64,000 nt of DNA from an uncultured Bdellovibrionales bacterium (GTDB lineage Bacteria > Patescibacteriota > Minisyncoccia > Moranbacterales > UBA1568), in the NCBI GenBank assembly GCA_964384235.1, contig CAYLJX010000001.1:86792-150791 (forward strand), written 5' to 3'. Shown here piece by piece: positions 28,515 to 44,737 of the stretch. The notes under the pieces were generated by a model. It did not search any database and had not been told where the DNA came from. It was given only the letters and a program-made list of their open reading frames with translations. Both the position numbers and the translations under genes were made by a program. Numbering within the stretch: position 1 is the stretch's first letter; each line of letters starts with the position of its first letter.

Positions 28515-30542
28515 ATGACTACCCAGTCCGATATCACATTTTTCGCCAAGACGAACTTCCGCAATCAGGAGCGGACGTTCGGTATCAAGACCGACGACCG
28601 ACGACGTCATATGTACGTCATCGGCAAGACCGGCATGGGCAAGACCAACCTCCTGGAGAACCTGGCCATCCAGGATATACAGAAGGGACACGGCATCGCC
28701 TTCATCGATCCGCACGGTGACACCGCGGAAAAGCTCATACGGGCGATTCCCGCGAGCCGCATCAACGACGTCATCTATTTCAATCCGGCCGACCAGGACT
28801 TTCCGATCGCCTTCAACGTGATGGAGAAGGTGAGTCCCGAGTACCGCCACCTGGTCGCTTCGGGTCTCGTCGGTGTCTTCAAGAAGCTCTGGGCTGACTC
28901 GTGGGGTCCGCGGCTCGAATACATTCTCCGAAACGCCATCATCGCGCTCCTCGAATACCCGGGTTCGACCCTTCTCGGCGTGACACGCATCCTCGTCGAT
29001 AAGTCCTACCGTGACCGCGTCGTGGAAAAGATCTCCGATCCGGTGGTGCGCTCCTTCTGGGTGGACGAGTTTTCCAAGTGGGACCCGCGCGTCCTTCAGG
29101 AAGTCATCTCGCCGATCCAGAACAAGGTCGGTCAGTTCCTCTCGAGCGCTCTCATCCGCAACATCGTCGGTCAGACGGTGTCGTCCTTCGACGTGCGCAC
29201 GATCATGGACGAGCGCAAGATCCTCATCATGAACCTCTCCAAGGGCCGCATCGGTGAGGACAACAGCGCACTCCTTGGCGCCATGATGATCACCAAGATC
29301 CAGCTCGCAGCCATGGGGCGTGTCGATATGCCGGAGGAGGAACGCAAGGACTTTTACCTCTATGTCGACGAGTTCCAGAACTTCGCGACGGAATCCTTCG
29401 CCAATATCCTCTCCGAGGCCCGCAAGTACCGCCTCAACCTCGTGCTCGCCAACCAGTACATCACGCAGATCGACGAGAAAGTGCGCGATGCCATCTTTGG
29501 AAACGCCGGGACACTCGTATCGTTCCGCGTGGGCGCCATGGACGCCGAAGCGCTCGAGAAGGAGTTCGAGCCGGTCTTCATGATGAACGATATCGTCAAT
29601 CTGCCGAAGTATCAGATCTACCTCAAGCTCATGATCGACGGTATCGCGGGGGACGCCTTCAGTGCGACGACTTTGCCGCCCATCGCGCTCCAGGATGGGG
29701 GTAACGAGGAAAAGATCATCCGGATTTCCCGCGAGCGCTATGCGACATCCAAGGCGGATGTGGAAGAAAAGATCCGCCGCTGGAGCGGCATGCTCACGCC
29801 GGAGGAAAAAGCGGCGCTCATCGAGACGGTGCAGAGTCCTCGTCCGAGACAGGAGGCACCCAGAAGGATGTCCGAAGAAAGTTTCCGGTCACCTCGTCCC
29901 GAGAGGAAAAACGCACCGCAGACTCCGATGACTCCTCGACCTCAGGCTGCTCCGAAGACCGTGCCGGTCGAAAAGCCTCAGGCGGAAGAGCGTGTCGAAA
30001 CAGGTACCCCGAAAGTTCAGCCGGAAGAACCGGCTCGTCCTGAACCAATTGAAGAAAAAACCGTTTCTCAGGAGACCGAGGAAAGAGTCGAAGAGATTTC
30101 CGGACAGGAGACTCATACGCGACCGCTCCCGGAAGAAGGGAAGCAGGAAGAACGACCGATGTACGCGGCGGTCTGCGCTTCCTGCGGGACCGAGATCGAG
30201 GTGCCGTTCAGGCCCGATGGCAAGCGCCCGACCTTCTGCAAGGACTGCCTGCGGGATTACCAGCGCGCCACTGCCAAGGTTCGTCGCGAGGTCGAAACCA
30301 AGCAGGCACCGGTCTCGCAACCTTCTGTCCAGCGATCATCACAACCGACCGATGTTCCTCCTCGTCCCCGCAAACAGGTGGTGAGGAGTACCTACGTGTC
30401 CGATCAGTCTCCCATCTCGCTTTCCCAGGTACAGCACATCGAGCCCAAGAAATTCAAAGCGCTCAAGAAGCGCCCCAGTGTCAATCTTGACGAGATTCGC
30501 GCGCTCCTCGACGATGCGAAGAAGAAGAACGATGCCGAATGA
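28515..30542 (+). CDS. VirD4/TraD/TrwB-like (type IV coupling protein) or HerA/FtsK-fold P-loop ATPase with a C-terminal CxxC...CxxC zinc ribbon
   Basis: Walker A 'VIGKTGMGKTN', 'IAFIDPHGD', 'IYFNP', 'LYVDEFQNFA', 'EARKYRLNLVLANQYITQID', 'GNAGTLVSFRVG'. Then a long linker and 'CASCGTEIEVPFRPDGKRPTFCKDC'. Confidence 0.65.
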   Translation: MTTQSDITFFAKTNFRNQERTFGIKTDDRRRHMYVIGKTGMGKTNLLENLAIQDIQKGHGIAFIDPHGDTAEKLIRAIPASRINDVIYFNPADQDFPIAFNVMEKVSPEYRHLVASGLVGVFKKLWADSWGPRLEYILRNAIIALLEYPGSTLLGVTRILVDKSYRDRVVEKISDPVVRSFWVDEFSKWDPRVLQEVISPIQNKVGQFLSSALIRNIVGQTVSSFDVRTIMDERKILIMNLSKGRIGEDNSALLGAMMITKIQLAAMGRVDMPEEERKDFYLYVDEFQNFATESFANILSEARKYRLNLVLANQYITQIDEKVRDAIFGNAGTLVSFRVGAMDAEALEKEFEPVFMMNDIVNLPKYQIYLKLMIDGIAGDAFSATTLPPIALQDGGNEEKIIRISRERYATSKADVEEKIRRWSGMLTPEEKAALIETVQSPRPRQEAPRRMSEESFRSPRPERKNAPQTPMTPRPQAAPKTVPVEKPQAEERVETGTPKVQPEEPARPEPIEEKTVSQETEERVEEISGQETHTRPLPEEGKQEERPMYAAVCASCGTEIEVPFRPDGKRPTFCKDCLRDYQRATAKVRREVETKQAPVSQPSVQRSSQPTDVPPRPRKQVVRSTYVSDQSPISLSQVQHIEPKKFKALKKRPSVNLDEIRALLDDAKKKNDAE

Positions 30543-30692: not shown

Positions 30693-31115
30693 ATGACTGG
30701 AGGCAAGCTTCTTGTCCGGGGAGTGATCGGAGGAGTGATCGTCCTGGTCGCCTGGGTGGCCTATGCTTCCTCCAAACAGATCGAACGGAACAAGGGTATC
30801 GAGAAGGAAGTGGCCGCGCTCCAGGCCGAAGCCGACAAGATCCGCCGGGAAAACGAGACCCTTTCCGAAAAGATCAGTTATTTTTCCTCATCGTCCTTTC
30901 AGGAACAGGAAGCCAAGAAGAAGCTCGGACTGCGGAAAGCCGATGAAAACGTCGCCGTGATACAGCCCCGGACAGTCGTGGAAGAAGAAAAGAACGAGGA
31001 ACAAACGACCATGGCCGGAGCCTCGTCTGCCGGCACGAGAGACCGGGACCATCTGCCGAATTACCGGAAGTGGTGGGAGAGATTTTTTTCGAATGAACAA
31101 GGAAAAGATATATGA
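30693..31115 (+). CDS. FtsB/DivIC/FtsL-family septum formation initiator
   Basis: N-terminal TM followed by the coiled coil 'KEVAALQAEADKIRRENETLSEKI', the typical architecture. Confidence 0.55.
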   Translation: MTGGKLLVRGVIGGVIVLVAWVAYASSKQIERNKGIEKEVAALQAEADKIRRENETLSEKISYFSSSSFQEQEAKKKLGLRKADENVAVIQPRTVVEEEKNEEQTTMAGASSAGTRDRDHLPNYRKWWERFFSNEQGKDI

Positions 31116-32161
31116 CGGAAACAGCGAAACAAGGAGCGAGGCGGATCAAATGGGGAACGATCGGACTCCTGGGACTTGTCGTCATCGGGGTGCTGTTCAT
31201 CGCGACCCTGGTCATGGTGTACGCGCTGCCGCGGTCGCAGGCTGAGAGCGTCGTGAACCGGTTCCCATACCCTGTCGCGGTCATCGGGTATCGTGAGGCT
31301 GTCACCCATCGGACACTCTCTGCCAATCTCGCGTCGGTCAGGAGTTTTTATGAGAATCAGGATTTTTCCAAGATCGGCATGCGTGTCGATTTCACCACCG
31401 AGGAAGGACAGAAGCGTCTCAAGGTGCGCGAGAAGGAGGTCCTCAACAAGATGATCGAGGACAAGGCGATCATGCTCCTCGCCAAGGAGCGAGGTATCCG
31501 GGTGAGCGACGAGAGCGTCCGTGAGGGGCTCCGGCGCAAGCTCGAAGAGTACGGCAGCGGGGAAGAAGTGAAAAAGAGCCTGGCTCGTCTGTATGGCTGG
31601 ACACTCTCCGATTTCGAGGAAAAAGTGGTCCTGCCGAGTCTCTACGAGGAAAAACTCCGCGAAAGTTTTCTCAAAGAAACTGACAATTCCAAGGCTGAAG
31701 ACAAGATCCGTTCCGCCCAGGAAGCGCTTCGTGGCGGCATGACGTTCGAGGATGTAGCGAAAAAATATTCAGAGGGAAAAACGGCCGATGAGGGAGGGGA
31801 ACTCGGATGGTATCGTCTCGGCGATCTGACACCCGAACTCCAGAAAGCCGTCGCGGCGCAGAAGAGTGGTGTGGCGGGGGATGTCGTGGAAAGCGACCTC
31901 GGTTTCCATATCGTCCTCGTCGAGGAGGTCAAGAAAGAGCAGGACACGTCGCTCTACCGACTGCGCCAGATTTTCATGAAGAAAACGATGTTCGCGGATT
32001 GGCTCTCGGAAAAGATGCGGCAGGTGTCCATCTTCATCCTTTCGCCCGAATACCGCTGGAATGCCGACGAGGCCCGGGCGGAATTCCGTGACAAACAGAT
32101 GATCGAATTCGAAAAGGAACTTTTCGAGAAAGCTCAGGGCGACGCGTCCTTTTTCTTCTAA
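31112..32161 (+). CDS. PpiC-type (parvulin) peptidyl-prolyl isomerase, PrsA/SurA-like, membrane-anchored
   Basis: N-terminal TM; parvulin domain 'GMTFEDVAKKYSEGKTADEGGELGWYRLGDLTPELQKAV...GFHIVLVEEV'. Confidence 0.75.
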   Translation: MTETAKQGARRIKWGTIGLLGLVVIGVLFIATLVMVYALPRSQAESVVNRFPYPVAVIGYREAVTHRTLSANLASVRSFYENQDFSKIGMRVDFTTEEGQKRLKVREKEVLNKMIEDKAIMLLAKERGIRVSDESVREGLRRKLEEYGSGEEVKKSLARLYGWTLSDFEEKVVLPSLYEEKLRESFLKETDNSKAEDKIRSAQEALRGGMTFEDVAKKYSEGKTADEGGELGWYRLGDLTPELQKAVAAQKSGVAGDVVESDLGFHIVLVEEVKKEQDTSLYRLRQIFMKKTMFADWLSEKMRQVSIFILSPEYRWNADEARAEFRDKQMIEFEKELFEKAQGDASFFF

Positions 32162-32441: not shown

Positions 32442-33728
32442 ATGGAAACACTTGAACCGATGCCGACAACCTCGCAAGAGACACCGAAACAGGAAAAGCG
32501 GATTTCCCGGGGACAGTACTTCGGGATGGTCGCGATCGCCCTCGTTTTCGGGTTCCTCGGAGGACTGATCGCACCCCGTCTTTCAGGGCTGTCCGATTTT
32601 CCCTTTCAACCCAAGAAAAAACAGGAAGTGAGACAGGAGACCGGGACGACTATCACGCCGCCCGTCTCGCTGGTGGCCGAGGATGATGCCGTCGTGAACG
32701 TCGTCGAGAAGAACTCGCCAGCCGTGGTGAGTATCGTCATCACCAAGGACGTGCCGCAGGTGCGCCGGTTCTTCAATACTCCCTTCGGCAACGGCTTCCC
32801 GTTCTTCAGTGATCCCTTTCAGAACGAGGATACTCAGGGAAACGGCAGGGGAGAGACACAGAAGCGGCAGGTCGGTTCCGGTTCAGGCTTCTTCGTTTCT
32901 TCCGACGGTCTCGTTGTGACCAACAAGCACGTGGCCTCCGACACCCAGGCCGATTACACGGTCATCACCACCGACGGCAAGGAATACCCGGCCAAGGTGC
33001 TCGCCCGCGATCCCAACAATGACATCGCCGTGCTCAAGGTGGAGGGCAAAGATTTCCCGGCACTCTCACTCGGTGATTCCGACGTGGTGAGGGTCGGTCA
33101 GACCGCCATCGTCATCGGTAACCCCTTGGGTGAGTTTGCCAACTCCGTTTCGCGCGGCATCATCTCGGGACTCAAGCGCAGTGTCACGGCCGGATCCGGC
33201 TTCGGCGATGAGGAGAAGCTCACCGGTATCATCCAGACGGACGCGGCCATCAATCCCGGCAACTCCGGCGGCCCGCTCCTCAACATTTCCGGGCAGGTCA
33301 TCGGCGTGAACGTCGCCATGGCACAGGGCGCGGAGAACATCGGTTTCGCTCTCCCTATCAATCAGGTCAAGCGCATCGTCGAACAGGTCCGCACCACCGG
33401 CAAGATCACCACGCCGTACATCGGTGTCCGCTATGTCCTCCTCAATGACGAGATCCAGAAGGAAAACAATCTCCCATACAACTACGGTGCGCTGGTGCTT
33501 CGTGGGCAGAATATGACGGACTTCGCGGTCATCCCGGGCTCGCCGGCCGACAAGGCGGGCATCGTCGAGAACGACGTCATCCTCGAGATCGGCGGCACCA
33601 AGGTGGACGAGGAACACCCCCTCGGCAACCTCATCGCCGAGCACAACGTCGGCGACGAGATCACGCTCAAACTCTGGCACAAAGGCGACACGAAGGACGT
33701 CAAAGTGAAACTAGAGGAGAGAAAGTGA
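32442..33728 (+). CDS. HtrA/DegP-family serine protease (S1C) with a PDZ domain, membrane-anchored
   Basis: 'GSGFFVSSDGLVVTNKHV' (His), 'DIAVLKV' (Asp), 'TDAAINPGNSGGPLLN' (Ser), and a C-terminal PDZ 'GSPADKAGIVENDVILEIGG'. Confidence 0.85.
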   Translation: METLEPMPTTSQETPKQEKRISRGQYFGMVAIALVFGFLGGLIAPRLSGLSDFPFQPKKKQEVRQETGTTITPPVSLVAEDDAVVNVVEKNSPAVVSIVITKDVPQVRRFFNTPFGNGFPFFSDPFQNEDTQGNGRGETQKRQVGSGSGFFVSSDGLVVTNKHVASDTQADYTVITTDGKEYPAKVLARDPNNDIAVLKVEGKDFPALSLGDSDVVRVGQTAIVIGNPLGEFANSVSRGIISGLKRSVTAGSGFGDEEKLTGIIQTDAAINPGNSGGPLLNISGQVIGVNVAMAQGAENIGFALPINQVKRIVEQVRTTGKITTPYIGVRYVLLNDEIQKENNLPYNYGALVLRGQNMTDFAVIPGSPADKAGIVENDVILEIGGTKVDEEHPLGNLIAEHNVGDEITLKLWHKGDTKDVKVKLEERK

Positions 33729-33744
33729 CATTGCCTTAGCAATG

Positions 33745-33850
33745 TCATCCCCGCGCAGGCGGGGATCCAGTCTGTTTTGTCGAAGGGTCATCCCGGGCTC
33801 CCGCCCGAACGTATCAGTTCGGTACGGGCGGGCGACCCGGGATCCAGTAT
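33745..33850 (+). terminator. Two tandem terminator-like hairpins after htrA, each ending in 'GGGATCCAGT' followed by a T-rich tail
   Basis: 'atccccgcgcaggcggggatccagtctgttttg' and 'tcccgggctcccgcccg...cgggcgggcgacccgggatccagtattttg'. Confidence 0.45.
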
Positions 33851-33980
33851 TTTGAATCTGAATACTGAATAGTTAAAGAGGCTTGAAGGAACCTCTTTGA
33901 ATTTGTATTGACAATCGTTTCAGCGGGTGTAGGATAGGGCTGTCGTCGCGGGGGTGACGGTTTGATGCAAGGGGGATGGC

Positions 33981-34193
33981 ATGGAACATGAGGAAGCGGA
34001 GTTTTATTTGAAACCGGGACAGAAAGTGGTGGCATACGGCGATCCAAGGCTCTTGGCTCAGGGTATCCAGGAAGGAGAACAGGGCACTGTGAAGGAGGGT
34101 CGGGGTTTGAGCTTCTATGCCGTAAGTTTTCAGCACGGCGAACGCACCGTGGTAGCTTTCTGTTATGCCGGCTGGATACATCCCATCCAGTAG
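33981..34193 (+). CDS. Hypothetical small protein (70 aa)
   Basis: Has its own TTGACA promoter (33908-33936), RBS 'agggggatggcATG', and a terminator at 34224-34258. No family recognised. Confidence 0.35.
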   Translation: MEHEEAEFYLKPGQKVVAYGDPRLLAQGIQEGEQGTVKEGRGLSFYAVSFQHGERTVVAFCYAGWIHPIQ

Positions 34194-34223
34194 CATGACG
34201 GACAACGTGTAAAAGGGTCTGGT

Positions 34224-34258
34224 GATGCGTCTAACGCCAGACCCCTATTTTTTCAGGG
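34224..34258 (+). terminator. Rho-independent terminator
   Basis: 'gggtctggtgatgcgtctaacgccagaccc' followed by 'ctatttttt'. Confidence 0.55.
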
Positions 34259-34277
34259 ATTTCGTGGACGCATACGA

Positions 34278-34304
34278 TTAGCACTCTCATGTTGAGATTG
34301 CTAA
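34278..34304 (+). promoter_or_regulatory. CIRCE element (HrcA operator) upstream of clpB
   Basis: 'TTAGCACTCtcatgttgaGATTGCTAA' against the consensus TTAGCACTC-N9-GAGTGCTAA (one mismatch). Confidence 0.6.
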
Positions 34305-34335
34305 TTTTTTGTTTTTGTGATAAATTGAGTCCATA

Positions 34336-34387
34336 AAGTGGAAAGTCTAAGTGGAAAGTCTAAGTGGAAAGTCTAAGTGGAAAGTCT
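34336..34387 (+). repeat. Four perfect tandem copies of the 13-bp unit 'AAGTGGAAAGTCT'
   Basis: Direct tandem repeat between the CIRCE element and the clpB promoter. It carries the same 'AAAGTC' core as the boxes at 34383-34457 and 20322-20410. Confidence 0.8.
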
Positions 34388-34457
34388 ATAAAGTTTATCA
34401 AGTACTATATACAAAGGACTTTCTTGGCTTTATTGAACTTTACAGACTTTACAAACT
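34383..34457 (+). promoter_or_regulatory. Putative operator: box1 'AGTCTATAAAGTTTATCAAGT' and box2 'GAACTTTACAGACTTTACAAACT' (heptad direct repeats), overlapping the clpB -35/-10 (TTGAAC-18-TATTAA)
   Basis: Both boxes recur with the same order and orientation relative to the minus-strand VIT1 operon, at 20322-20344 and 20390-20410. Confidence 0.45.
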
Positions 34458-34463
34458 ATTAAT

Positions 34464-37115
<2,652 letters not shown>

Positions 37116-37146
37116 ATCAGGAATAATAAGTCCCGAAAAAAAGAAC

Positions 37147-37176
37147 CTCTTCTAAGGTTCTTTTTCGATATGATAT
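37147..37176 (+). terminator. Rho-independent terminator after clpB
   Basis: 'aaagaacctcttctaaggttcttttt'. Confidence 0.55.
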
Positions 37177-37240
37177 AGTAAAAAAGAAGGATTTTTCTTC
37201 GTCATGATTCTCAATTCTTGATTCCTGATTCTTCTCCAAA

Positions 37241-37996
37241 ATGGTCTTCCATTTCACGATATTTTTCTGGAGCGTCGTTTTCTTTCTCGGATTGGAAACG
37301 GTCACCCTGCGGCCGGTCTCCCTTTCGTGGAGCTGGTACCTTTTTTCCGTCTTACCGCTCCTCGTCATTTCCCTCATGGCGAGCCGCCGCCTCACCAAAC
37401 GGTATGCCGACGGATTCATCCCGATGCTTCTTTCACTCTCGGCACCGACGCTTCTGTCACTCATCGATCACCCTACGCAGAGGCAGGTTTTCGTTTTTCT
37501 CGGAGCGCTCATGTACTATTTCGCGCTTCTCGGCATCTACCGGTTGCGTCACAATCCGACGGATCGGACAGGACAATCATTTCTCAACGCCGCCGCCATG
37601 GCCGGCATGCTTTTCTTCTATACCGGCATGTACGGTTTCTTTCTCAACTTCAACTTTCCACTCTGGGGACTGATGGCACTCTACGCGGTCGGCACCATGC
37701 TCACGAGCTATGAGACGTTCATCGGACGAGAAAAGAAGGAACGACACCGCGTGCTCACATACAGCCTGCTCCTGGGACTCATCATGGGGGAGCTCGTCTG
37801 GGTGATAAGTTTCTGGCCGTTCGGATATCTGACGACCGGGACGATCGCGCTCATCCTTTTCTTTCTCGTATGGGACATCGCGTTCGACGCCTTTCGGCAG
37901 TCTCTCTCGCTCAAGAGAGCGCTGTTCCGGATCGGCTTTTTCCTTGGACTGACCCTTCTGCTCTTTTTGAGTTCTCCGTGGAGAATCCTTGTCTGA
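37241..37996 (+). CDS. Hypothetical polytopic membrane protein (start uncertain)
   Basis: About 7 TM helices; no family recognised. Confidence 0.45.
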   Translation: MVFHFTIFFWSVVFFLGLETVTLRPVSLSWSWYLFSVLPLLVISLMASRRLTKRYADGFIPMLLSLSAPTLLSLIDHPTQRQVFVFLGALMYYFALLGIYRLRHNPTDRTGQSFLNAAAMAGMLFFYTGMYGFFLNFNFPLWGLMALYAVGTMLTSYETFIGREKKERHRVLTYSLLLGLIMGELVWVISFWPFGYLTTGTIALILFFLVWDIAFDAFRQSLSLKRALFRIGFFLGLTLLLFLSSPWRILV

Positions 37997-38024
37997 AGAA
38001 GGAAAACGTGATACAAAAGGAATA

Positions 38025-39197
38025 ATGTTTTCCTCTATGTTTCTCAAAAAATGCCTCAAATACGGGCTCATTGCGATAGCTGTTTTCGTTTTGGGTGGGA
38101 TCGGCGGAGTGACCTTTGAACGCTACGCCGTACCGCGTCTGGCGGGCATACCGGAGCTTTCGCAGATGCGTTTCTTCAAGAAGGCGACCGAGAATGTCAC
38201 CATCATCAACAAGACCGAGCAGGTCGTCATCCGCGAGGATGATTCGGTGGAACGGATCGTGTCCCAGCCAGCGACGGCCGTCGTCAATATCGTGACGGAA
38301 AAGAGCGTGACGCCGGCAGCTTCGACCGCTGTCAGGCAGGAGGGCAACACCGAGACCGGCGTCCTCCTTACCAACGACGGGCTCATCGTGACCTATCACC
38401 AGTCCGCGCCGACCGATGCGACACTTCGTTACTCGGTGCTTCTCTTCGACGGTACCAGTCACAAGGCCGAGTATGTCGGTCGTGATCCGCTTACCAATCT
38501 CGCCTTCTTTCGGCTCCTTGACGGAGTGAACGCGCCGGCCATCGCGCTCGCTAATTCCGATGACGCGCGTACCGGCAGGAAACTCATCGCCATCGGCAAT
38601 GCGGCTGGCGAGTACCAGAACCGCCTCTTCGTCGGCATCCTCGAGAATATCGACCGGACATTCAACCTTTCCGGCAAGACGGTGGCCTCGTCGGAGAAGT
38701 GGGAGGGTGTCTTCGATATGAACCTGGACAACCCAGAGGATTTCGTCGGCGGTCCGGCTATCGGTTTCAACGGTGAGATGGTCGGGTTGGTGGGGGAGAT
38801 GGATCTCGATACTGCCAAGCGGTCCTTTCTCATCCCGTCCAATGTCGTCCGTGCCTCTATGGATAGAGTGATCGGCGGTAAGCTCGAGACGCGTCCGGTC
38901 CTCGGGGTGTACTACCGCTCCATCACCAAGGCGTATGCGCTCTCGCAGGGGTTGTCCCGCGACCGGGGCGCGCTCGTCTATTCACCTTCCGGCAAGACGG
39001 GACTCGCGGTCATCGCGGGGTCACCGGCTGATCGGGCCGGACTCCAGTACGGTGATATCGTCATAGCGGTGAACGGTGCCGAGATCAATCTCGACAATCC
39101 GCTCGCGCGTGCCCTGAGCCGTTTCGAGAAGGGTGACACTATGGAACTGACCGTGCTTCGAAACGGGGAAGAAAAGAAAATAACCGTACAACTCTGA
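38025..39197 (+). CDS. HtrA-like pseudo-protease with a PDZ domain and a degenerate catalytic triad (alternative start at 37989)
   Basis: Trypsin fold is recognisable ('VLLTNDGLIVTYHQ', 'LIAIGNAAGE', 'GFNGEMVGLV'). The Ser box reads 'DFVGGP' instead of GNSGGP, and the Asp position reads 'NLAFFRL'. C-terminal PDZ 'GSPADRAGLQYGDIVIAVNG'. RBS 'aaaaggaataATG'. Confidence 0.65.
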   Translation: MFSSMFLKKCLKYGLIAIAVFVLGGIGGVTFERYAVPRLAGIPELSQMRFFKKATENVTIINKTEQVVIREDDSVERIVSQPATAVVNIVTEKSVTPAASTAVRQEGNTETGVLLTNDGLIVTYHQSAPTDATLRYSVLLFDGTSHKAEYVGRDPLTNLAFFRLLDGVNAPAIALANSDDARTGRKLIAIGNAAGEYQNRLFVGILENIDRTFNLSGKTVASSEKWEGVFDMNLDNPEDFVGGPAIGFNGEMVGLVGEMDLDTAKRSFLIPSNVVRASMDRVIGGKLETRPVLGVYYRSITKAYALSQGLSRDRGALVYSPSGKTGLAVIAGSPADRAGLQYGDIVIAVNGAEINLDNPLARALSRFEKGDTMELTVLRNGEEKKITVQL

Positions 39198-39198
39198 T

Positions 39199-40446
39199 AT
39201 GAGACAATCGCAACTGTTCACCAAGACGAAGAAGGAAGCGCCCAAGGACGAAGTATCCAAGAACGCAGAGCTTCTCATCCGGGCCGGTTTCATCCATAAG
39301 GAGATGGCCGGAGTATACGCGTTCCTGCCGCTCGGGCTTCGCGTCCTCAATAACATCATCGGGATCATCCGCGAGGAGATGAACAGGATCGGCGGACAGG
39401 AATTGTTTCTCACGGCGCTCCAGAATCCTGAACTCTGGAAGACGACGAACCGTTGGGATGATACGATTGTCGACAACTGGTTCAAGACGAAGCTGAAGAA
39501 CGATTCGGAACTGGGCTTGGGCTTCACGCACGAGGAACCGATCACGGCTGCCATGAAGTCCTTCATCCAGTCGTACCGTGACCTGCCGTTTTCCGCTTAT
39601 CAGTTCCAGACGAAATTCAGGAACGAGACCCGGGCCAAGTCCGGTATCATGCGCGGACGTGAGTTCATCATGAAAGACCTGTATTCCTTCGCTCGGACGG
39701 AGGAGGAACTGGATGCGTTCTACGATCAGGCAGCCGAGGCCTACAGGAAAGTCTTCGCCCGTGTCGGTCTCGGAGAGAAGACCTATATGACGTTCGCTTC
39801 CGGAGGGGTGTTTTCCAAATACAGTCATGAGTTCCAGACGCTCTGCGAGGCGGGTGAGGATATCATCTACGTCGACGAGGAGAAAGGCATCGCGGTGAAC
39901 AAGGAGGTCTATACCGACGAGGTGCTCGGTGACCTTTCCCTCGACAAGGATAAGCTGGTCGAAAGGAAGTCAGTAGAGGTCGGCAATATTTTCAAGCTGG
40001 GGACGCGGTTTTCCGAACCGTTGGGACTCATGTACAAGGATGAGAACGGCGAATCCAAGCCGGTGGTGATGGGATCGTACGGTATCGGACCGGGGAGGCT
40101 TATGGGGACGATCGCTGAGGTGCTCTCCGACGAGCGCGGTCTTGTGTGGCCGGAGGCGGTCGCACCATATCGCGTGCACCTTCTCTCGCTCAATACGAAC
40201 GAGAAGGCCGAGGAACTCTACAAGGACCTGCAGGCGGCCGGTATCGAGGTGCTCTATGACGATCGCGATACGTCGGCGGGAGAGAAATTCGCCGACAGCG
40301 ATCTCATCGGTATCCCGTACCGCGTCATTGTCGGCAAGCGCTCGATCGAATCCGGTGAGGCGGAGGTGAAACACCGTGCTTCGGGAGATGTCGAAATGGT
40401 TCCCTTTGCGGATCTCGTCTCGTATTTCAAAAAACAATCTTCATGA
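39199..40446 (+). CDS. proS: Proline--tRNA ligase (short form without the INS editing domain)
   Basis: 'MRQSQLFTKTKKEAPKDEVSKNAELLIRAGFIHKEMAGVYAFLPLGLRVLNNI', 'FTHEEPIT', 'QFQTKFRNETRAKSGIMRGREFIMKDLYSF', C-terminal anticodon-binding domain. Confidence 0.9.
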   Translation: MRQSQLFTKTKKEAPKDEVSKNAELLIRAGFIHKEMAGVYAFLPLGLRVLNNIIGIIREEMNRIGGQELFLTALQNPELWKTTNRWDDTIVDNWFKTKLKNDSELGLGFTHEEPITAAMKSFIQSYRDLPFSAYQFQTKFRNETRAKSGIMRGREFIMKDLYSFARTEEELDAFYDQAAEAYRKVFARVGLGEKTYMTFASGGVFSKYSHEFQTLCEAGEDIIYVDEEKGIAVNKEVYTDEVLGDLSLDKDKLVERKSVEVGNIFKLGTRFSEPLGLMYKDENGESKPVVMGSYGIGPGRLMGTIAEVLSDERGLVWPEAVAPYRVHLLSLNTNEKAEELYKDLQAAGIEVLYDDRDTSAGEKFADSDLIGIPYRVIVGKRSIESGEAEVKHRASGDVEMVPFADLVSYFKKQSS

Positions 40447-42102: not shown

Positions 42103-43214
42103 AGATCGCGATTCAAGCTTCCGATCTTGATGCGCAGAGGATCGACGGGACGAGGGTGTATCTCAAGGAACTGCTCAGACGGTTCGGGACGTTGTCACCT
42201 GAGACGGATTTTTTCCTCTATCACAAGCATACTTTCAATCCTGTCCTGGAGCCGCCGAAGTTTCAGAATTATGAGGAGCGGGCGATTCCCTTTCCTAAGG
42301 CATGGATGCAGACGAGATTCGCATGGGAGATGTTTCGTACCCGTCCGGACAAACTTTTTCTCCCGATCCAAGCCGCGCCGCTCTTTCTTCCTTCCGGGAC
42401 GGACGTGACGGCGACCATCCATGACCTCGCCTTCAAACGGTATCCTGAGACGTTCCCGAAAGATCATCTCCGGAAACTCAACTTTCTCCTCGATGTCGTC
42501 GTGAAACGTGCAGACAAGCTCATTGCCGTTTCTGAATCGACCAAACGGGACCTTTTGGAATTTTTCCCCAAACTTTCCGAGGATAAGATCCGTGTTATTC
42601 ATCACGGCTTCGATGGCGACTTTTTCGGGAAAAGGCTCTCCTCGGAAGAAATTTCCGAAGAGCTCGAAAGCTACAAGCTACCAGCTACCAGCTATATCCT
42701 TTATGTCGGTGCCCTCCAGCCTCGTAAGAATCTCATCCGTCTCATTGAAGCGTTCAATATTGCCAAGAAGAGCGTACCTGACATGAGGTTGGTTCTTGCT
42801 GGTGAACCGGCTTGGCTCTCGGAGGGTATTCTCCAAGCGAGAGAGAAGAGCCCGTACAAAGACGATATCATTCTGACCGGGAGAGTCTCATTCAAGGATC
42901 TGCGTGCGTTGTATCAGGGTGCGAGATTCTTCGTGTTCCCGTCGCTCTACGAGGGGTTCGGTCTGCCGCTCCTCGAAGCGTTCGCTTCCGGGACACCGGT
43001 CCTCACCGCCGACAACTCAAGTCTCTCCGAAGTGGCCGGCCGCGGCGCGCTCTATTGCGACGCGCAGAGTGTCGAGGACATGGCCGAAAAAATGGAGCGC
43101 CTCTGGAAGGACGAAACGCTCCGAAACGGACTCGTCGAGCGTGGCACGGACCGTCTCAAGGGTTTCTCCTGGGACACATGCGCCAAAGAGACGCTGGAAT
43201 ATATTCTCAGGTAG
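42099..43214 (+). CDS. GT4-family glycosyltransferase
   Basis: 'ILYVGALQPRKNLIRLIEAF', 'FVFPSLYEGFGLPLLEAFASGTPVLTADNSSLSEVAG'. Confidence 0.85.
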   Translation: MKIAIQASDLDAQRIDGTRVYLKELLRRFGTLSPETDFFLYHKHTFNPVLEPPKFQNYEERAIPFPKAWMQTRFAWEMFRTRPDKLFLPIQAAPLFLPSGTDVTATIHDLAFKRYPETFPKDHLRKLNFLLDVVVKRADKLIAVSESTKRDLLEFFPKLSEDKIRVIHHGFDGDFFGKRLSSEEISEELESYKLPATSYILYVGALQPRKNLIRLIEAFNIAKKSVPDMRLVLAGEPAWLSEGILQAREKSPYKDDIILTGRVSFKDLRALYQGARFFVFPSLYEGFGLPLLEAFASGTPVLTADNSSLSEVAGRGALYCDAQSVEDMAEKMERLWKDETLRNGLVERGTDRLKGFSWDTCAKETLEYILR

Positions 43215-43279
43215 TCTTGCAAATTTCTAGTCTCTATGTCACAATATTTCTGCCGCAAGGCATTTTTTGTTTACAGAAT

Positions 43280-44737
43280 ATGGCGAAAGACCAGGTAGTA
43301 ATGAGATTCGATAACGTGTCCTTCGAATATGGGCACAAGAAACCGATCCTTGATGAGGTGAGCTTCAGCGTGCGAAGCGGAGCCAAACTCACCCTCATGG
43401 GACAGAACGGCGCGGGAAAGAGCTCGCTCTTCAAGCTCATCACCAGGGAACAGGAACCGCAGTCCGGCCGCATCTCCATCGACCGTGACGCCACGGTGGC
43501 GATCGCCCGGCAGGTCATTCCGCGTGAAAAACTCACCCTGACCGTAGAAGAGTTCTTCGCTGATCATTTCCCCGGCAAGGAATGGGAACTCCCTCCGGCC
43601 ATCAAGGACGTGCTCGCGGTCGTGCACATGCCCGTGCCGCCTCTGGACAAGAAGATGAACGAGTTTTCCGGCGGCCAGCAGGCGAGACTCCTTCTCGCGT
43701 CGGCGCTCATCCAGGATCCGGACATCCTCCTCCTCGACGAACCGACCAATAACCTCGACTACGAAGGCATCGCGCATCTCACGCAGTTCCTCGTCGACTA
43801 TCACAAGACCGTCATCGTCATCTCGCACGACGCGGAATTCCTCAATGCCTTCACGCAGGGAGTCCTCTACCTTGATGTCTTCACGCACAACATCGAGCAG
43901 TACACCGGTAATTACTACGACGTGGTCGAGGATATCAAACGCCGTATCGAAAAGGAACAGAGCGAGAACGTCCGTTTGGAACGCACCATCAAGGAAAAGA
44001 AAGAGCAAGCCAACGTCTTCGCCAACAAGGGTGGGAAACTGCGTGCCGTGGCCAAGCGCATGCGTGACCTCGCGACTGAGCTCGAAGAGAACAAGGTGGA
44101 CATCCGTCAGGAAGACGCGACGCTCCCGTCCTTCGAGATCGTCTGTCAGGACATCGTCGGGCCGATCGTAGAAATCAAGACCGTATCGCTCATCCTCGAG
44201 ATGGGTCCGGCGGTCAAACAGGTCGGTCTGACACTGAAGCGCAACACACACCTCCTCGTCTCGGGACGAAACGGCATCGGCAAGAGTACGTTCCTCGAGG
44301 CGCTCGCTTCAGGCGATACCGAACGCGCTGCCATCACGCCCGGCGTAAAGGTCGGGTACTACCGGCAGGATTTCTCGACGCTCGACTTCGACAAGACCGT
44401 CGCCGAGACACTTCTCGACGTGACGAAGGACAAGAGCATGGAAACCGTCTATCGGGTAGCGGCGAAGTTTCTCCTGCCGGCGGAGCTCGTCCAGAACCAG
44501 GTCGGGAGCCTCTCGGAAGGACAGAAGGGCCTCCTCATGTTCGCGTATCTGTTTCTCCAGGAACCGGAACTCCTGATCCTCGACGAACCGACCAATCACA
44601 TCAACTTCCGTCACATCCCGGTCATCGCCGAAGCGCTCGATAAGTACAAGGGGACGATGATCTTCGTCTCGCACGTGCCCGATTTCGTCGCGCAAATCCG
44701 CATCGACGAAGTCCTCGACCTCGAGTCCTTATCTTAA
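43280..44737 (+). CDS. ABC-F family ATPase (two ABC domains, no TMD)
   Basis: 'LMGQNGAGKSSLFKLI', 'FSGGQQARLLLASALIQDPDILLLDEPTNNLD', second cassette 'VSGRNGIGKSTFLEAL', 'LSEGQKGLLMFAYLFLQEPELLILDEPTNHI'. Start taken at MAKDQV; the longer track ORF overlaps the upstream GT4. Confidence 0.85.
   Translation: MAKDQVVMRFDNVSFEYGHKKPILDEVSFSVRSGAKLTLMGQNGAGKSSLFKLITREQEPQSGRISIDRDATVAIARQVIPREKLTLTVEEFFADHFPGKEWELPPAIKDVLAVVHMPVPPLDKKMNEFSGGQQARLLLASALIQDPDILLLDEPTNNLDYEGIAHLTQFLVDYHKTVIVISHDAEFLNAFTQGVLYLDVFTHNIEQYTGNYYDVVEDIKRRIEKEQSENVRLERTIKEKKEQANVFANKGGKLRAVAKRMRDLATELEENKVDIRQEDATLPSFEIVCQDIVGPIVEIKTVSLILEMGPAVKQVGLTLKRNTHLLVSGRNGIGKSTFLEALASGDTERAAITPGVKVGYYRQDFSTLDFDKTVAETLLDVTKDKSMETVYRVAAKFLLPAELVQNQVGSLSEGQKGLLMFAYLFLQEPELLILDEPTNHINFRHIPVIAEALDKYKGTMIFVSHVPDFVAQIRIDEVLDLESLS

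Follow-up and report, generated by a model that had tools for sequence, protein, structure and literature searches.

A putative HtrA-family pseudoprotease with a conserved PDZ domain is paired with a DUF5656 membrane protein gene in Patescibacteria

What role is left for a protease homolog that has lost its active site, and with which partner would it act? This question is raised by a gene of the HtrA family located in a 64,000-nt stretch of contig CAYLJX010000001.1 (assembly GCA_964384235.1), which is referred to as the window in the following. A preliminary description of the gene considered its product a catalytically dead HtrA-like paralog that keeps the trypsin fold and the PDZ domain and suggested a chaperone-only or regulatory role. 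The first part of this description is borne out by domain matches, by the residues found at the three catalytic positions (Q126, N158 and V241) and by the loss of the triad throughout the family. The protein, here called triad-less HtrA, is encoded next to a gene for a polytopic DUF5656 membrane protein in almost all related loci, and this pairing gives the suggested role a different direction.

The open frame spans 37989 (TTG) to 39197 on the + strand in the open reading frame (ORF) listing of the window. AAAGGA is found 5 nt ahead of the ATG at 38025, and the N-termini of the orthologs agree with this start (Table 1). In Pfam, the protein matches Trypsin_2 (4.9e-12, residues 111-255) as well as PDZ_2 (3e-14, residues 293-390) and PDZ_6 (5.2e-9). 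Solved HtrA, DegP, DegQ, HhoA and MucD chains from the PDB align with residues 105-388 (HMMER/phmmer, best 8.6e-25). A chance resemblance is of no concern, since 989 homologs at E<=1e-5 were obtained in one search. The best NCBIfam model is degP_htrA_DO (TIGR02037) with 128 bits at a cut-off of 416.2, and the DegS model TIGR02038 reaches 72.6 bits (cut-off 422.95). As the active HtrA of the window likewise remains under the TIGR02037 cut-off (298.9 bits), this cut-off is a weak criterion for proteins of the Candidate Phyla Radiation (CPR). Residues 13-31, which follow three Lys, are the sole segment of strong hydrophobicity. According to the positive-inside rule, a type-II anchor is predicted, with the bulk of the protein being extracytoplasmic as in the active paralog. 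An AlphaFold2 (AF2) model built from 36 close orthologs has a mean predicted local distance difference test score (pLDDT) of 64.6, with values <50 over residues 173-234, and was kept out of residue-level claims. With this moderate-confidence model, Foldseek returned DegP, DegQ, MucD, DegS and M. tuberculosis HtrA at ~1e-16 to 1e-13 (best 3.6e-16).

The triad-less HtrA and the active HtrA of the window align end to end (29% identity, E = 7e-45, BLASTP). The latter had been named earlier as a nearby active htrA (32442), in agreement with its His-Asp-Ser (HDS) triad, its GNSGGP box and its strong Trypsin_2 match. At the His site, TNKH163V of the active protein corresponds to TYH125Q126S of the triad-less protein (BLASTP, MAFFT), at the Asp site NND194IAV corresponds to LTN158LAF, and at the Ser site GNS275GGP corresponds to DFV241GGP. 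The placement of the motifs agrees between BLASTP against the active HtrA, HMMER against solved HtrAs and two MAFFT alignments; the His column is occupied by Q126 in MAFFT and by H125 in HMMER after a gap of one residue. The reported loss of Ser from the box DFVGGP is confirmed, with Val replacing the nucleophile and the adjoining Phe replacing Asn, and the exchange of Asp for Asn was recognized correctly as well. The proposed shift of the His holds in part: H125 is indeed located one residue early in the window protein, but it is not conserved and is confined to this protein and a 100%-identical copy (P0001).

Apart from this copy, 120 orthologs were listed at 58-68% identity, and the substitutions are fixed among them. 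Their His column contains E in 102 sequences, with S-E as the residue pair at this site, and H in a single one; in the Ser column, 80 sequences have V and 36 have I (116 together). The triad is present in 0/120. An alternative His-based triad was sought and none was found, neither among the 36 close orthologs nor among 50 diverse members of the wider clade described below. As no His is conserved in ≥90% of the sequences anywhere, no alternative alignment can recover such a triad for the family. These comparisons support the classification of the protein as a pseudoprotease, that is, an enzyme homolog whose catalytic residues are gone and in which this loss is conserved among orthologs. Judged by its sequence, it lacks the defining catalytic feature of family S1C, and the name serine protease should be avoided for it.

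The loss extends well beyond the close orthologs. When 1.84 billion cluster representatives were searched exhaustively with HMMER, 220 matches at E<=1e-30 were obtained. The first 40 representatives (56% to ~32% identity) are all devoid of the His and nearly all devoid of the Ser, and canonical KH/D/GNSGGP proteins start at E ~1e-56 and predominate below 1e-45. A total of 68 representatives, down to ~28% identity, lack the HDS triad (68/68), with the His absent in 67 of them. In a neighbor-joining tree of the 141 full-length sequences among the top 150 matches, which is unbootstrapped and includes the catalytic columns (3/386), a single split separates these 68 sequences from 73 with an HDS triad. 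Some members of the triad-less clade are without the His and still carry NSGGP (EDS, QDS, RDS, ENS and QNS at the triad positions); they look like possible intermediates of triad loss. When one genome per GTDB species was scanned with motifs, a relative with an intact reading frame was found in 204 genomes, the best 80 of which are records of Moranbacteria or other Patescibacteria. The source labels of the orthologs, i.e. the few that are named and the genome records, also read Moranbacteria/Moraniibacteriota or Patescibacteria. Dozens of TPA records of metagenome-assembled genomes titled 'uncultured Bdellovibrionales' (L004-L009, L011, L015, L016, L018 and others) contain loci of the Moranbacteria type that show the same order of genes and are 60-65% identical, and the titles of these records look wrong.

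The ratio of nonsynonymous to synonymous substitutions (dN/dS) of the triad-less HtrA is 0.03-0.09. Since dS is saturated in most genome pairs, the figures are taken from the two least saturated ones. In the pair L027/L028, dN/dS is 0.032 for the triad-less HtrA, 0.031 for the active HtrA, 0.038 for DUF5656 and 0.036 for prolyl-tRNA synthetase (ProRS). The corresponding values in the pair L031/L032 are 0.073, 0.157, 0.040 and 0.103. By these measures, the gene is under strong purifying selection and is a functional one. The sequences further indicate that it represents a large and strongly conserved Patescibacteria (CPR) family, in which the missing triad is a family trait and not an accident of one lineage. 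In the literature searched on HtrA pseudoproteases, DUF5656 and Patescibacteria, MamO of magnetotactic bacteria is the sole bacterial precedent and the family is undescribed.

To locate the remaining constraint, columns conserved in ≥80% of the 73 active relatives were compared with the 68 members of the triad-less clade. Of 66 such columns in the protease domain, the triad-less clade keeps 16 (≥70%), and conservation drops below 50% in 38. Of the 18 columns in the PDZ domain, 12 are kept and 3 are below 50%. The losses in the protease domain affect TN.HV, D.A, IGNPLG, N.V..G..S...R, IQTDAAIN.GNSGGPL, G.N.A and GFA.P, while the positions kept are mostly structural (G112, D118, G119, D154, G184, G242, G250, G254 and P271). 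Positions kept in the PDZ domain are G294, Y297, G315, A316, S333, A335, G339, D344 and R379. Conserved specifically in the triad-less clade are the juxtamembrane residues P37 (94%) and L39 (75%), I61 and E65 of the VTIINKTEQ strand, T116, F161, N169, K186 and G228. The decay thus appears to span the whole catalytic apparatus, and the PDZ domain looks fully functional. As its constraint is the same as in active HtrAs, the PDZ domain is probably the working part of the protein.

The triad-less HtrA gene is located two genes past clpB, as stated earlier. The intervening gene, which encodes the DUF5656 membrane protein, is the important neighbour; its stop codon is separated from the ATG at 38025 by 28 nt. 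For the synteny analysis, the window proteins were compared with 82 related loci using tblastn. DUF5656 is located directly 5' of the triad-less HtrA gene on the same strand in the ~75 loci with sufficient upstream DNA, with the exception of L049. The pair is also found in distant clade members with other neighbours. P0164 (31% identity, L084) is encoded in the order ribosomal proteins - SecY - DUF5656 - triad-less HtrA - FtsQ-type POTRA protein, and P0185 (EDS, 30% identity, L090) in the order DUF5679 - DUF5656 - triad-less HtrA - Wzz-like. DUF5656 is encoded immediately 5' of P0218 (QNS, L091), of P0150 (L083) and of a further distant member in L093. The 262-aa protein upstream of P0181 (L087) is a DUF5656 homolog of 29% identity, and a fragment resembling the DUF5656 C-terminus precedes P0213 (L092). 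In the reverse approach, starting from the distant DUF5656 protein P0396, the downstream gene encodes an HtrA without a triad (no His; Ser replaced by Ile). The adjacency of the two genes is near-obligate across changing contexts. In one distant lineage (L084, 2925-6984; L094, 1449-4789), the pair follows SecY at the end of the ribosomal operon and precedes the FtsQ-type POTRA protein. This context, together with the DivIC-like gene at the head of the window's cluster, hints at a link to the secretion or division machinery.

The AF2 model of the DUF5656 protein is of high confidence and comprises nine helices (pLDDT 88.6, predicted template modeling score 0.86). Conserved residues are H4, Y93, R101, D108, T110, N136, E184, W192-P-F-G-Y-L-T198, W211 and W247. 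A search of NCBIfam with the DUF5656 profile gave no match, and the literature searched contains no mention of DUF5656. By hand count, 16 Lys/Arg residues are located in loops 2/3, 4/5, 6/7 and 8/9 and 3 elsewhere. The positive-inside count predicts that the N-terminus is inside and that the C-terminal tail is outside, on the same side as the PDZ domain. The tail ends in SSPWRILV and follows the family pattern [ST][ST][PR]-W-x-x-hydrophobic-COOH; nearly all pairs have the invariant Trp as well as a hydrophobic residue at the very end.

The reading favoured here, which we consider probable with some reserve, is that the triad-less HtrA is a non-catalytic, PDZ-dependent partner of DUF5656 and that both constitute a module of two genes for the homeostasis of envelope or secretory proteins. 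In Moranbacteria, a single N-terminal helix would anchor the triad-less HtrA at the outer side of the cytoplasmic membrane. The trypsin-fold domain, deprived of the triad and of most of the cleft, oxyanion-loop and activation-loop signature, probably persists as a scaffold or as a module for oligomerisation. The PDZ domain may bind a peptide ligand, which could be the C-terminus of a client or, as a speculation, the tail at the exposed C-terminus of DUF5656, and the two proteins would cooperate on the outer side of the membrane. It is inferred that the triad-less HtrA is coupled to DUF5656 physically or functionally, that its PDZ domain binds peptides or C-termini and that it is located outside the cytoplasm. 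The setting is a proteostasis cluster of envelope and cytoplasmic factors, comprising the active HtrA, ClpB and a PrsA-like rotamase; clpB is preceded by a CIRCE element (controlling inverted repeat of chaperone expression). The decay of the cleft and the tightest link being to DUF5656, not to the active HtrA, shift the earlier suggestion of a chaperone-only or regulatory role, as far as can be judged from sequences. HtrA PDZ domains bind hydrophobic C-termini. Since the DUF5656 C-terminus is predicted to be outside and its tail is conserved, a more specific and tentative version can be put forward: a Patescibacteria-specific membrane complex in which the PDZ domain clamps the flexible SSPWRILV tail and thereby tethers a silent HtrA scaffold to the nine-helix protein. 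Such a complex would work at or near the Sec translocon, as SecY precedes the pair in some lineages, and would serve secretion or envelope quality control of minimal, episymbiotic cells. We regard this version as possible, though doubtful.

Several observations weigh against a DUF5656-coupled function. In L049, no DUF5656 gene is found within 5 kb upstream of the triad-less HtrA gene, and the divergent member P0208 (L088) is preceded by an unrelated 151-aa gene instead. Neither a fold search (best E = 1) nor a profile search of the PDB retrieved a relative of DUF5656, so that these searches provide no functional clue. Adjacency is strong but indirect evidence for a link between the two proteins. 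Moreover, structural statements on the triad-less HtrA rest on sequence alignment because its AF2 model is mediocre.

As an alternative, the protein could be a stand-alone extracytoplasmic chaperone or holdase that binds unfolded secreted proteins in the former cleft and the PDZ domain, independently of DUF5656. Proteolytically inactive E. coli DegP retains chaperone activity, and the retained HtrA fold and PDZ domain, the conserved GGP, G250 and G254 of the L1/L2 region and the neighbouring genes for a PrsA-like foldase, the active HtrA and ClpB would fit such a role. We nevertheless consider it rather unlikely, as more than half of the protease columns conserved in active relatives have dropped below 50%, which leaves the cleft free of HtrA-like constraint, and as the near-obligate pairing with DUF5656 in changing contexts would be unexplained. 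A role as a regulatory subunit of the active HtrA, either in mixed trimers or oligomers or by activation or restraint in the way MamO acts on MamE, is plausible in Moranbacteria, where the active htrA is located 1-2 genes upstream in at least 45 loci. The LD loop of HtrA relays activation between subunits, and no motif of the Moranbacteria orthologs is more strongly conserved than the region of this loop (FNLSGKTVASSEKWEGVF). In distant members (L084, L090), however, the triad-less HtrA travels with DUF5656 and not with an active htrA, and the window's two paralogs share only 29% of their residues; in spite of the MamO precedent, this role is judged unlikely.

Residual catalysis by unconventional residues, for example a Ser/Lys dyad in SSEK, could be deduced from the invariance of S223, E224 and K225 in 36 Moranbacteria orthologs. 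In the alignment of the wider clade, by contrast, E224 alone reaches 90%, S223 and K225 do not, and the motif varies (SSED, VPEK, SSEV, STER). The E-K pair also occurs in the active paralog, where it is non-catalytic, and a conserved His is found nowhere. The dyad at SSEK was rejected because the motif is not conserved clade-wide, and a cryptic protease in general is very improbable. The loss of catalytic residues could finally mark a decaying duplicate, a functionless pseudogene in progress. This explanation is hardly credible: the clade is deep (to ~28% identity), the frame is intact in >200 species genomes, and dN/dS is on par with essential neighbours. The pseudogene reading is refuted by dN/dS together with the intact frames in the 204 species genomes.

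The preferred reading of a DUF5656 partner is placed in its genomic surroundings in Table 1. The usual gene order in related genomes is DivIC - PpiC/PrsA-like - active HtrA - [ClpB] - DUF5656 - triad-less HtrA - ProRS. The presence or absence of clpB is an insertion/deletion polymorphism in an otherwise fixed order (L001 vs the window; L003-L082). Several loci contain 1.5-3.8 kb of extra DNA between the triad-less HtrA gene and proS.

Table 1 Features of the triad-less HtrA locus in the window
Feature	Position	Strand	Description
PpiC/PrsA-like rotamase gene	31112..32161	+	conserved upstream cluster member
Active HtrA paralog	32442..33728	+	H163/D194/S275, GNSGGP; membrane-anchored, one PDZ; Trypsin_2 7e-38
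clpB	34464..37115	+	variably present between active htrA and DUF5656 in related genomes
DUF5656 gene	37241..37996	+	251 aa, 9 predicted transmembrane helices; Pfam DUF5656 (PF18900) 2.1e-10
Triad-less HtrA coding sequence	38025..39197	+	390 aa; alternative starts TTG 37989, ATG 38037
N-terminal transmembrane anchor (predicted), YGLIAIAVFVLGGIGGVTF	38061..38117	+	residues 13-31, 19-residue hydrophobic stretch (hydropathy); AF2 helix 2-24
Degenerate trypsin-fold (HtrA protease-like) domain	38277..38879	+	~residues 85-285; Trypsin_2, PDB HtrA alignments, Foldseek
Catalytic-His position	38397..38402	+	H125-Q126; family consensus S-E
Catalytic-Asp position	38496..38498	+	N158; N in 117/120 orthologs
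Nucleophile box	38742..38747	+	F240-V241 in place of Asn-Ser of GNSGGP; orthologs [FY][VI]GGP
PDZ domain	38901..39194	+	residues 293-390; LGVYY carboxylate-binding-loop region, GSPA..AG and GD motifs conserved as in active HtrAs

The gap between the active htrA and clpB (33729-34463) comprises 735 nt of non-coding DNA, which is unusually long for a compact CPR genome. It contains a CIRCE-type HrcA operator, TTAGCACTCTCATGTTGAGATTGCTAA, at 34278-34304 (+), ~160 nt 5' of the clpB start at 34464. The site has 1 mismatch to TTAGCACTC-N9-GAGTGCTAA, with none expected by chance. The operator points to regulation of clpB by heat shock, which might extend to DUF5656 and the triad-less HtrA if these are co-transcribed. 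Between the operator and clpB, a tandem array of the 13-nt unit AAGTGGAAAGTCT is located at 34336-34387 (+), with ~4 copies of which 3 are perfect, and an inverted partial copy of the unit is found at 34436-34453. A sigma-70-like promoter match (10/12) at 33908-33935 and a hairpin right after htrA (33726-33747) were also noted. In the promoter and terminator scan of 33600-39500, sites are no more frequent than chance, and operon structure is therefore deduced from the short gaps alone.

The conserved syntenic block is headed by a gene at 28515-30542 (+) for a 675-aa TrwB/TraD-like ATPase (DUF87, TrwB_AAD_bind) with a C-terminal zinc finger (zf_Tbcl_2). In the ortholog locus L001, this gene is preceded by a DUF8128 gene. 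Further downstream, a 641-aa ORF with a TTG start (42812-44737, +) overlaps the end of a GT4 gene. Over the first ~150 residues, its translation is low in complexity and rich in Arg and Ser, and the ABC-F-type ATPase that the ORF encodes probably begins at an internal Met.

Databases label the triad-less HtrA as 'S1C family serine protease' or 'serine protease Do' in hundreds of Patescibacteria genomes. Because of this mislabelling, the proteolytic capacity deduced for reduced CPR genomes is overstated. These very small genomes keep the triad-less HtrA under selection of ProRS strength, alongside DUF5656, and the pair is likely an important, lineage-specific envelope module. The pairing also provides a first functional handle for DUF5656. 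New here are the view of the family as a whole, the pattern of constraint by domain and the partnership with DUF5656.

Compared with known systems, the triad-less HtrA shares the N-terminal anchor, the trypsin fold and one PDZ domain with the HtrA, DegP, DegQ and DegS proteins (MEROPS S1C), in particular with DegS and with Gram-positive and mycobacterial HtrA. It differs from them in the absence of the His-Asp-Ser triad, in the loss of most of the catalytic-loop signature and in its pairing with DUF5656. The engineered DegP S210A is likewise an HtrA scaffold without a nucleophile and may serve as a conceptual model for the chaperone-only reading. DegP S210A is a laboratory point mutant whose cleft is otherwise intact, whereas the cleft signature of the triad-less HtrA appears to have diverged naturally throughout.

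The closest functional precedent is MamO of magnetotactic bacteria, an HtrA-family pseudoprotease joined to a polytopic TauE-like membrane domain (PMC4794232). MamO promotes the activity of its paralog MamE without catalysis of its own, and MamE cannot be activated in this way unless MamO has its membrane domain (PMC4794232). MamO and LimO originated by duplication and were then retained; in MamO, the His and the Asp are preserved, the nucleophile is Thr, metal is bound at a di-His site and there is no PDZ domain (PMC4794232). The triad-less HtrA, in contrast, retains its PDZ domain, has lost all three triad residues and is without a conserved His, which leaves no di-His metal site. Its putative membrane partner has a gene of its own and belongs to an unrelated family, with no relationship between DUF5656 and TauE detected (Pfam yields DUF5656 alone), and the protein itself has only one anchor helix. 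The NCBIfam MamO model NF040961 scores 32.7 bits against it (cut-off 800), and the family belongs to Patescibacteria. As in MamO, however, what its sequence suggests is an HtrA-derived, non-catalytic domain that originated by duplication, was retained, is encoded near an active paralog and is tied to a polytopic membrane module. Next to MamO, the Patescibacteria family is the second natural example of an HtrA pseudoprotease associated with a polytopic membrane protein; it is independent of the first and much larger.

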